Shown here piece by piece: positions 13,471-14,280 of a stretch of DNA of 22,658 nucleotides. Origin of the DNA: a virus (taxonomy: Duplodnaviria > Heunggongvirae > Uroviricota > Caudoviricetes); IMG/VR virus record IMGVR_UViG_2529292919_000022. One strand, written 5' to 3'. A program made the position numbers and the translations under genes. The notes beneath the pieces were generated by a model. The model saw only the letters and a list, made by a program, of their open reading frames with translations, did not search any database and was not told the origin of the DNA. Every line of letters starts with the position of its first letter. Position 1 is the stretch's first letter.

Positions 13471-13899
13471 ATGAAAGATCTGACAACCGCTGAGATATCG
13501 AACTTAAACCACTTCGAAAAAGAATCCTTTGCATTAAATATTGCAAATCTGGTAGGTGCTGCTCGTACTTTCCATTTAATTGATGGTGATCGCTCTAAAG
13601 AATTGGGGTTTGAAGTCATGGAGTTTGTTCATGAATACGCCCTGTCTGCTACTTATCCATTACATAATCACATAATCAACAAACAACCAAATAAAATCCG
13701 CACCCAACGCGAAGCCTGCGGCTTAACAACCGCCGAACTCGCCAGGCTGCTCGATCTCGATGAAGAAATTATCATCCAGTGGGAAAGCGGAGAGTACGAA
13801 CCAACCATCAGCATGCTTATCCCTCTGGCTAATGTTCTTGGCTGTGATCCAATGTTGTTATTGACTGATGCTTATAAACAAAATCAGGAGGAAGCATAA
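13471..13899 (+). CDS. Hypothetical protein with C-terminal XRE-family HTH (HigA/YgjM-like architecture)
   Basis: ORF track 142 aa. The C-terminal segment IRTQREACGLTTAELARLLDLDEEIIIQWESGEYEPTISMLIPLANVLGCDP is a typical Cro/C1-type HTH; the N-terminal ~70 aa is unrecognised. It is the first gene after the PL-like promoter. Confidence 0.6.
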   Translation: MKDLTTAEISNLNHFEKESFALNIANLVGAARTFHLIDGDRSKELGFEVMEFVHEYALSATYPLHNHIINKQPNKIRTQREACGLTTAELARLLDLDEEIIIQWESGEYEPTISMLIPLANVLGCDPMLLLTDAYKQNQEEA

Positions 13900-13900
13900 G

Positions 13901-14092
13901 ATGAAAATGTTCAAAGGCCTTACCAACGAACCGGAGACAGCTTTTCATCACATTGCCGTACTGCTTGAAGCGGGGTTAATCATTTCGGCTTCCGGTGATG
14001 AAGAATGTGATGAACTTTCGGATGATATCTTTTTACTGGCACAACAATACGCCAAAAGCGCATGCGATGCATTTAAGGAGCAAAGAACATGA
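13901..14092 (+). CDS. Hypothetical small acidic protein (63 aa)
   Basis: Within ORF 13868..14092; ATG at 13901 is preceded by AGGAGG (13886-13891). Sequence MKMFKGLTNEPETAFHHIAVLLEAGLIISASGDEECDELSDDIFLLAQQYAKSACDAFKEQRT. Confidence 0.45.
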   Translation: MKMFKGLTNEPETAFHHIAVLLEAGLIISASGDEECDELSDDIFLLAQQYAKSACDAFKEQRT

Positions 14093-14280
14093 TAACTCCA
14101 TTAAATATTCTTGAGGAAGTGGCGGCACAAATAAAAGAGAATACATCAATGCTTGAATTTATATTTAAGAATTCGCCCGACCAAGGAGAGACAGACGATT
14201 ATTTATGCTGTCTCATTCGCTCCATGAATAAGACCTGTGAAATGGCTTACGAGTATATAGAAACACTACGCAACGAATAA
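14089..14280 (+). CDS. Hypothetical small acidic protein (63 aa)
   Basis: ORF track; its start overlaps the previous stop (ATGA), suggesting translational coupling. Confidence 0.4.
   Translation: MITPLNILEEVAAQIKENTSMLEFIFKNSPDQGETDDYLCCLIRSMNKTCEMAYEYIETLRNE

Follow-up and report, generated by a model that had tools for sequence, protein, structure and literature searches.

Three small genes, here called P1, P2 and P3, form a cassette next to the cI-type repressor gene of the window, by which we mean the whole 22,658-nucleotide stretch of viral DNA that was analysed (IMG/VR record IMGVR_UViG_2529292919_000022). P1 encodes an acidic protein with a predicted N-terminal helical hairpin and a C-terminal helix-turn-helix (HTH) domain, while P2 and P3 encode acidic proteins that are predicted to be hairpins standing alone (Table 1). 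The three open reading frames (ORFs) lie where a first-pass annotation, made from the DNA letters alone, had placed them. In near-identical prophages RefSeq annotates all three as coding sequences (CDS). The repressor (WP_000793268 in RefSeq) is encoded directly 5' of the cassette on the same strand. As a whole, the window is a decayed lambdoid prophage that has kept its immunity region and early-left genes intact.

Table 1. Features of the cassette and of its surroundings in the window. aa, amino acids; AF2, AlphaFold2; IS, insertion sequence; pI, isoelectric point; pLDDT, predicted local distance difference test; SD, Shine-Dalgarno sequence.
Feature	Position	Strand	Remarks
P1, 142 aa, acidic hairpin-HTH	13471..13899	+	pI 4.69, net charge -12
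P1 N-terminal helical hairpin, residues 14-69, type A	13510..13677	+	AF2 helices 14-36 and 40-69, pLDDT ~86
P1 XRE-type HTH, residues 75-130	13693..13860	+	Pfam HTH_3, AF2 helices 75-130; shared mosaic segment
P2, 63 aa, acidic free hairpin	13901..14092	+	phrog_4587 E 1.9e-33; superfamily of N-terminal types D, B, A
P3, 63 aa, acidic free hairpin	14089..14280	+	phrog_6882 E 7e-40; homologous to N-terminal type F
PL-like sigma-70 promoter TTGACA-18-TAACAT	13387..13416	+	10/12 consensus positions
OL-like operator cluster	13351..13439	.	AAATCAAGTAAAA, ATCAATTTTTTCTTGAC, ATCAATTTTGACTTGAT; repeats in common with cro/cI intergenic 12587-12605
cI-type repressor, XRE HTH + S24 autoprotease	12635..13324	+	Pfam Peptidase_S24 E 8.3e-17, HTH_3 E 7.1e-9
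cro-like gene, YdaS-type HTH	12219..12500	-	Pfam YdaS_toxin E 7.1e-13, P22_Cro E 8.2e-5
Basic 32-aa ORF ending LFLRKAYGK, unannotated	14363..14461	+	pI 10.4; own SD; ends 3 nt before gene 14465
69-aa ORF, phrog_340	14824-15033	+	adjoins ParE-like ORF; weak likeness to anti-repressor C-terminus
ParE-like toxin ORF	15038-15226	+	Pfam PF24732 E 4.7e-19; 1.1 kb 3' of P1, five ORFs apart
IS21	10391-12192	-	istA 11170-12192, istB 10391-11173; abuts cro-like gene
IS66-family element	18766-21381	-	transposase 18766-20337, TnpB-like 20357-20704, orf1 20704-21381
Ail/Lom-family outer-membrane protein gene	1328-1927	-	Pfam E 2.4e-121

The cassette and its promoter

Over 12278-15300 the window shares 99.8% identity with phi467 (LN997803), a Shiga toxin (Stx) 2f phage, and with several E. 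coli prophages. On one strand these carry a cro-like gene, replication genes and a Q-like antiterminator; on the other, an S24 cI-type repressor, P1-P2-P3, about 15 small genes and xis/int. The operon that starts with P1-P2-P3 extends in phi467 as far as the integrase, and the gene order of the window agrees. As P1 follows the repressor in these records, it is the first gene of the leftward early operon.

The promoter listed in Table 1 was the best-scoring one within 12150-15300, a region with no terminator-like site on the + strand, hence with none from the promoter to P3. It is surrounded by operator-like repeats. The 13-mer AAATCAAGTAAAA has identical copies at 12587-12599, between cro and cI, and at 13351-13363. 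ATCAATTTTTTCTTGAC (13375-13391) overlaps the -35 hexamer, and ATCAATTTTGACTTGAT (13423-13439), a perfect palindrome, lies just 3' of the -10 hexamer. Sites of the form ATCAA-N7-TTGA(T) are found at these last two positions and at 12589-12605 in the cro/cI intergenic region; the pattern ATCAA-N7-TTGAT occurs four times in the window, where chance would give 0.97, and three of the four are these operator-like sites. Equivalent TTGACA promoters are found in related loci whose P1 homologues carry N-terminal domains of types A, B and F (defined in the next section). Most related loci have a clear intrinsic terminator after cI and then the equivalent promoter (the terminator was noted for types A and B). 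Given this terminator and their own operator-flanked promoter, P1, P2 and P3 are repressor-controlled early genes and not part of the cI transcript. The locus belongs by position to the PL-type early-left operons of lambdoid prophages: it is co-directional with cI, has an operator-overlapped sigma-70 promoter and runs toward xis/int. According to these sequence features P1, P2 and P3 are the predicted first products of a cI-repressed early-left (PL-like) operon, as had been suggested, with operators in common with the cro/cI region and the gene order of phi467.

The three genes are tightly packed. P2 starts 1 nt past the P1 stop codon, with AGGAGG 8 nt upstream of its start, and P3 overlaps P2 by ATGA, with AAGGAG 8 nt upstream. 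These strong SDs, the 1-nt gap and the overlap indicate that translation is coupled.

P1 matches phrog_4836 (E 9.8e-59), which PHROG labels 'CII-like regulator', and has 158 homologues, nearly all of them in E. coli prophages. Its AF2 model (mean pLDDT 73) consists of an antiparallel hairpin, a flexible linker of low confidence and a five-helix XRE domain. The C-terminal XRE-type HTH reported by the first-pass annotation was recovered by Pfam HTH_3 (PF01381; residues 76-127, E 3.5e-11, 43.4 bits against a cutoff of 23), and by this domain only P1 is a member of the XRE/HTH_3 superfamily. The best Foldseek matches of the HTH are C.AhdI, P22 C2 and CapH, at a target-normalised template modelling (TM) score of 0.8. 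Foldseek against the PDB or the viral BFVD gave no full-length analogue of P1, just HTH-only matches with a query-normalised TM-score of at most 0.43; the PDB sequence search likewise matched the HTH alone, and PADLOC and NCBIfam returned generic HTH matches only. The remote-homology and structure-prediction check that had been proposed thus yielded the HTH fold and the hairpin paralogy described below, and no full-length analogue.

The P1 HTH is unusual in its charge (net -6, pI 4.2), and its recognition helix begins D97-E98-E99, whereas the repressors encoded at these loci have HTH domains with a net charge of +4 and a pI of about 10. In remoter family members, from Salmonella and Pantoea, the HTH charge is -1 to +1 and the recognition helix is ordinary. 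The net charge of -6 and the acidic start of the recognition helix make canonical DNA binding by P1 doubtful, and the target of this conserved, very acidic HTH could be either DNA or protein. A second HTH is present in many P1 homologues; in relatives of 215-245 residues it is yet more degenerate, with the recognition helix YSDPINDWECG. Both the P1 HTH and this second HTH may be protein-binding pseudo-HTH domains.

P2 and P3 had been described as two overlapping acidic ORFs of 63 residues, and so they are: P2 has a pI of 4.45 and a net charge of -7, P3 a pI of 4.31 and a net charge of -7.5. The ratio of non-synonymous to synonymous polymorphism (pN/pS) is 0.13 for P2 and 0.15 for P3, and 31 of the 46 variable sites of P3 fall at third codon positions. 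We regard both as real genes because of their PHROG matches, their low pN/pS and the RefSeq CDS annotation. Neither has a Pfam, NCBIfam or PADLOC family match. AF2 predicts P3 to be a hairpin with helices 2-28 and 34-62 (pLDDT 91).

Fused and free hairpins in related prophages

Among the 158 P1 homologues the HTH is 80-93% identical, while the N-terminal ~60-85 residues fall into at least eight sequence types, A to H. These N-terminal domains and the small proteins match each other in profile comparisons. P1 residues 16-61 match phrog_4587, the family of P2 (E 2.9e-7). The profile hidden Markov models (HMMs) of N-terminal types D and B match P2 (E 3e-8 and 1.5e-4), that of type F matches P3 (about E 1e-8), and that of type A matches a third kind of small ORF, sA (E 1e-9 to 1e-11). 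The corresponding hhalign probabilities are 97.6% between A and sA, 95.5% between D and sP2 (E 1.5e-8) and 96.2% between F and sP3 (E 2.7e-9), with 90.8% between B and D and 80% between D and sA. In addition, P3 is 33% identical over its full length to the N-terminus of the protein P0088. The hairpin paralogy is detectable by profiles only and not by pairwise BLASTP. P2 and P3 have no detectable relationship to each other, BLASTP of one against the other being empty. According to the profile matches, P2 and P3 are predicted stand-alone hairpins of the kinds that sister regulators use as N-terminal domains.

The arrangement is well conserved. In 81 of 83 E. coli loci the order of repressor, hairpin-HTH gene and free hairpin gene(s) is kept, with at least one free hairpin ORF straight after the hairpin-HTH gene; the remaining two loci end at contig ends. 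Two downstream modules are found. P2 with P3 occurs in 26 loci, after HTH proteins of types A, B, C, D and G, and also after type E (L090-L092). The sA module occurs in 55 loci, after types A and C and one N-terminally truncated gene, and also after type F (L087-L089); sA is either a protein of ~63-66 residues or part of a 121-residue fusion such as L08 of phiP27.

Relatives outside E. coli keep the same plan. Prophages of Pantoea, Salmonella and Enterobacter have a cro-like gene, an S24 repressor, a hairpin-HTH protein and small helical proteins in the same order. In the Salmonella and Enterobacter loci a P2-like hairpin is fused to the HTH and a free P3-like hairpin follows; in E. coli type-F loci the P3-like hairpin is fused and a free hairpin of the P2 superfamily follows. 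This swap of fused and free roles is a hint, of the Rosetta-stone type, that both kinds of hairpin work as partners.

Only 38 members of the family turned up when 1.84 billion representative proteins were searched exhaustively with profiles. Those examined are free proteins of 60-90 residues or N-terminal domains before one to three HTH domains, and every member whose source was looked up belongs to Escherichia, Salmonella, Enterobacter, Klebsiella, Kluyvera or Pantoea. A scan of one genome per species gave no relatives, just two spurious HTH matches. The family appears to be confined to Enterobacterales prophages. In E. coli K-12 the corresponding positions are occupied by YmfJ, YmfH, YdaG and YdaF, which show no homology to any of the hairpin types (lowest E-value 0.08).

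A short motif, (A/V)D(I/V)VIxGxx(I/V)VKNR, accompanies the hairpins. It makes up the N-terminal half of the 121-residue sA fusions (phiP27 L08; L004, 4779-5144), is a separate 69-residue ORF in Pantoea (L093, 4199-4608) and stands between the HTH domains of the 333-residue Salmonella protein P0161 (L097, 3001-4002). It looks like another mobile mini-domain of the hairpin cassette.

Possible roles of the cassette

No tested function was found in papers or annotations for the cassette or for any family member, and the literature search by protein accessions was empty. We tentatively propose that the free hairpins pair with the hairpins of HTH proteins and thereby modulate them, by analogy with SinI and SinR, a reading that we consider plausible although short of probable. 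An isolated two-helix hairpin would be unable to bury its hydrophobic face, and for this reason pairing into four-helix bundles is expected. In P1 the hairpin would then serve for oligomerisation or for binding a partner. The ATGA coupling would keep P2 and P3 at a fixed ratio, and the two would pair with one another, with hairpins that carry an HTH (that of P1 or its equivalents from co-resident prophages), or with both; this would titrate or remodel the regulator. The logic would be that of a paralogue of an oligomerisation domain that lacks the DNA-binding domain and antagonises the full-length protein, as in SinI/SinR, AimX/AimC and Id/basic helix-loop-helix proteins. The net effect would be a shaping of the early programme after repressor loss.

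Several observations weigh against this proposal. P2 and P3 do not track the type of the adjoining hairpin, near-identical pairs being found after types A, B, C, D, E and G, and this makes a strictly cognate antagonism of the SinI kind, acting in cis, unlikely for the window. The type-A hairpin of P1 is only ~24% identical to P2 when aligned without gaps through the hairpin core; BLASTP of P1 against P2 finds nothing, and the direct hhalign comparison of type A with sP2 is weak (E 0.043). Beyond the HTH there is no sequence or Pfam relationship to SinI/SinR, and the Pfam SinI helical domain did not match P1, P2 or P3 at E <= 0.1. Moreover, given its acidic HTH, P1 may be no DNA-binding regulator at all, and no conserved P1 operator was seen by eye in the PL regions and leaders of types A to G.

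By the logic of their function, and as analogies, the nearest known systems are SinR/SinI, AimC/AimX and the modules that join a transcription factor (TF) to a small ORF (smORF). The cassette belongs to none of these families. The SinR/SinI biofilm switch of Bacillus subtilis resembles it in joining an XRE HTH to a small helical oligomerisation domain, of which a separate small homologue exists without a DNA-binding domain. One report (PMC3163267) describes SinI as a mimic of the SinR oligomerisation domain and the SinI-SinR heterodimer as abolishing repressor function. The order of domains is reversed in the cassette, with the hairpin N-terminal and the HTH C-terminal. Furthermore, the cassette has two free paralogues and not one, neither of the sequence type of the neighbouring hairpin; its HTH is acidic, its setting is a phage early operon, and its pairing is predicted.

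In the arbitrium phages of Bacillus, a phage protein of 29-80 residues binds an HTH regulator and is called SinI-like by the authors: AimX blocks the oligomerisation of AimC (bioRxiv 10.1101/2025.11.23.689978). AimC is the master repressor and AimX is under AimR/AimP signalling, whereas the master repressor of the cassette is the separate S24 cI, all three cassette genes are co-transcribed from a cI-repressed promoter, and there is no homology. The TF-smORF modules of linear plasmid-like phages (Silpe et al. 2023, PMC10432266) are alike in that a gene for an XRE or other TF adjoins a gene for a tiny protein without known domains, and this protein influences the choice between lysis and lysogeny in a cognate-specific manner. 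In those modules a divergent smORF is activated by the TF, and its product inactivates cI independently of the SOS response. The cassette genes are instead co-directional and lie 3' of the cI operators, and their small proteins are paralogous to a domain of the TF-like protein. The cassette is an uncharacterised XRE-type protein with putative small-protein partners at a phage switch.

The fused hairpin type changes one-to-one with the adjacent repressor and operators in all seven types examined (A to G). DNA similarity across immunity types starts at 13696-13699, which corresponds to P1 codons 76-77 and to the start of the HTH domain. This sharp boundary places the hairpin in the immunity module and the HTH in the shared left arm. 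The co-variation could reflect functional coupling, that is, immunity-specific recognition, or mere adjacency; the data fit both. If coupled, the cassette could be an immunity-specific anti-repressor or commitment module in which each hairpin type binds the matching repressor or Cro. P1, made once PL fires, would neutralise leftover cognate cI and lock in lytic development, while the free hairpins, P2 being of the D/B kind and P3 of the F kind, would target in trans the repressors of heteroimmune co-resident prophages. We consider this somewhat unlikely. The one-to-one tracking and the place of the hairpin in the immunity module are what it predicts, and the acidic hairpins would face basic repressor HTH domains (net +4). 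Small non-proteolytic cI antagonists with cognate specificity are also on record (Silpe et al. 2023, PMC10432266), and so are antirepressors acting in trans between prophages (PMC3121763). However, adjacency alone suffices to account for the co-variation; the hairpin coding sequence begins ~30 nt past the last operator, and there is no homology there for recombination. The conserved HTH would be left without a role, and a protein repressed by its own target could not initiate induction.

A related idea, which we regard as a long shot, is a 'hairpin code' for prophage conflict. Each immunity type would carry a private hairpin on a shared acidic HTH effector, possibly one that does not bind DNA, and the free hairpins of foreign type (D/B-like P2, F-like P3) would be poison subunits or decoys against the equivalents or repressors of heteroimmune prophages. 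If this were true, the cassette would decide which prophage wins after a common inducing signal.

In lambda, Ral and Gam are expressed from PL. The cassette resembles lambda CII/CIII and N, Ral and Gam in position and timing, all of these being small proteins that act on regulators or host enzymes and are made from a leftward early promoter under repressor control. It differs in having no homology to lambda N, CII, CIII, Ral or Gam in Pfam or NCBIfam, and in its phage type a Q-like antiterminator is encoded on the opposite arm. An N-type antiterminator had been named as an alternative identity for P1, and the sequence speaks against it. P1 has no arginine-rich motif at its N-terminus, where the first 70 residues have a net charge of -5 and only five lysines and arginines, and it has no such match in Pfam, NCBIfam or PHROG.

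The first-pass annotation had also suggested that the small acidic proteins are anti-defence proteins of the DNA-mimic kind. Their acidity stood, while a family match in Pfam, NCBIfam or PADLOC did not emerge. In its broader form this reading has P2, P3 and perhaps the P1 pseudo-HTH bind a host or defence protein, by DNA mimicry against restriction enzymes or RecBCD or by AsiA-like binding of region 4 of the RNA polymerase sigma factor; they would be among the earliest proteins made once the prophage is induced, like Ral and Gam in lambda. The genes hold the first positions of a PL-type operon, their products are all acidic (pI 4.3-4.7), and the HTH of P1 is far more acidic than that of the true repressors encoded at the same loci. 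The N-terminal domains differ widely from one another, as an arms race predicts, and in a Salmonella relative Lar-type restriction-alleviation genes lie further along the same operon. Nevertheless, aspartate and glutamate make up just 19% of residues, and distant members have a charge-neutral HTH with ordinary recognition helices. Beyond the HTH no Pfam, NCBIfam or PADLOC match was found, in a search that included no library dedicated to anti-defence. Neither the homology of the free hairpins to the N-termini of HTH proteins nor their strict adjacency across genera is predicted by an anti-defence role. This homology argues for protein-protein pairing within the cassette instead, and we think an anti-defence or host-takeover function improbable.

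Lambda CIII is a small protein of the PL operon that protects CII. P1 could by this precedent be an unstable early activator, and the free hairpins decoys or inhibitors of a protease that recognises the hairpin. The label of phrog_4836 and one phage record that names a P1 relative 'putative CII repressor' point in this direction, although such labels are untested annotations. Small helical proteins co-expressed from PL would suit an establishment pair of this kind, and paralogy between a regulator domain and small proteins suits decoy logic. Pfam Phage_CII (PF05269) does not match, the acidic HTH speaks against a classical activator, and no candidate target promoter was identified. We consider a CII/CIII-like pair very unlikely.

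The first-pass annotation had associated the C-terminal HTH with antitoxins of the HigA/YgjM type, a reading that the data do not support. HigA and MqsA are indeed proteins of ~130-140 residues with a C-terminal XRE HTH, and P1 scores against MqsA in Pfam (PF15731 MqsA_antitoxin, E 0.047, 14.2 bits against a cutoff of 30) and in NCBIfam (TIGR03830, 24.9 bits against 61.8), in both cases below threshold. A ParE-like ORF also lies 1.1 kb downstream. It is, however, five ORFs from P1 and has its own upstream partner ORF, and no toxin gene adjoins P1, its neighbours P2 and P3 being homologues of regulator N-terminal domains. P1 lacks CxxC zinc motifs and a zinc- or toxin-binding N-terminal domain. 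No HigA or MqsA chain appeared in the PDB sequence search or among the top 50 listed fold matches, and the promoter is under phage-repressor control and not autonomous. A HigA/MqsA-type antitoxin or toxin-antitoxin regulator is thus most improbable. Finally, we leave a modest, minority chance to functions outside all the readings named here.

Neighbouring genes and meaning of the cassette

The spacer 14281-14464 had been put forward as a possible binding region for the HTH protein. It holds instead a conserved small coding ORF, the basic 32-residue ORF of Table 1, and a weak GC hairpin. Versions of the ORF of 35-38 residues are found at the same place, always next downstream, in E. coli, Salmonella and Enterobacter prophages, and the differences between loci are of coding type, including synonymous and conservative changes. 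This ORF may be part of the cassette. The small GC hairpin (CGGCC-TCT-GGTCG, 14310-14345) follows P3, its position being kept across both downstream module types, and inside the basic ORF, at 14388-14411, the - strand has a predicted hairpin that resembles a terminator and is accompanied by a T-run. The two may serve in attenuation, in processing or in ending antisense transcripts. Rfam found no known RNA in the window, this spacer and both small hairpins included. Further along, the 69-residue ORF and the ParE-like ORF may be a pair of the toxin-antitoxin kind within the early-left operon; among the identical prophages, only some have the ParE-like toxin annotated in RefSeq.

The rest of the window documents the decay of the prophage. 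Homology of the cro-like gene to phi467 begins only at 12278; its 3' end is the IS21 junction, and its final ~20 codons are of non-phage origin, IS21 abutting there. IS21 fuses the cro-like gene directly to a split tape-measure gene and tail genes (region 10391-12278, with 7794-10375). The rightward early and late region of phi467 (replication, Q, lysis and heads) is entirely missing, and this loss makes the prophage a remnant. The IS66-family element sits in the distal early-left arm, where phi467 carries its last small genes and the integrase. The Ail/Lom-family gene lies 3' of the tail tip gene J, as in lambda, and is intact despite the defective prophage.

The course that a lambdoid phage takes in its development is set by what its early-left operon makes first. 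A widespread group of phages, including Stx1a-, Stx2a-, Stx2d- and Stx2f-converting phages and phiP27, carries an unstudied cassette where N would sit. The cassette is conserved, has a clear domain architecture and holds a key regulatory position in Shiga-toxin phages, its function being inferred. The very acidic HTH means that annotations as 'HTH transcriptional regulator' may be wrong here, and the sharp boundary between hairpin and HTH makes domain-swap hybrids feasible. If the hairpins pair as we propose, a titration circuit of the SinI/SinR kind would operate within the immunity region. This would add an extra protein-level control on the induction of Shiga-toxin phages and on the competition between co-resident prophages.

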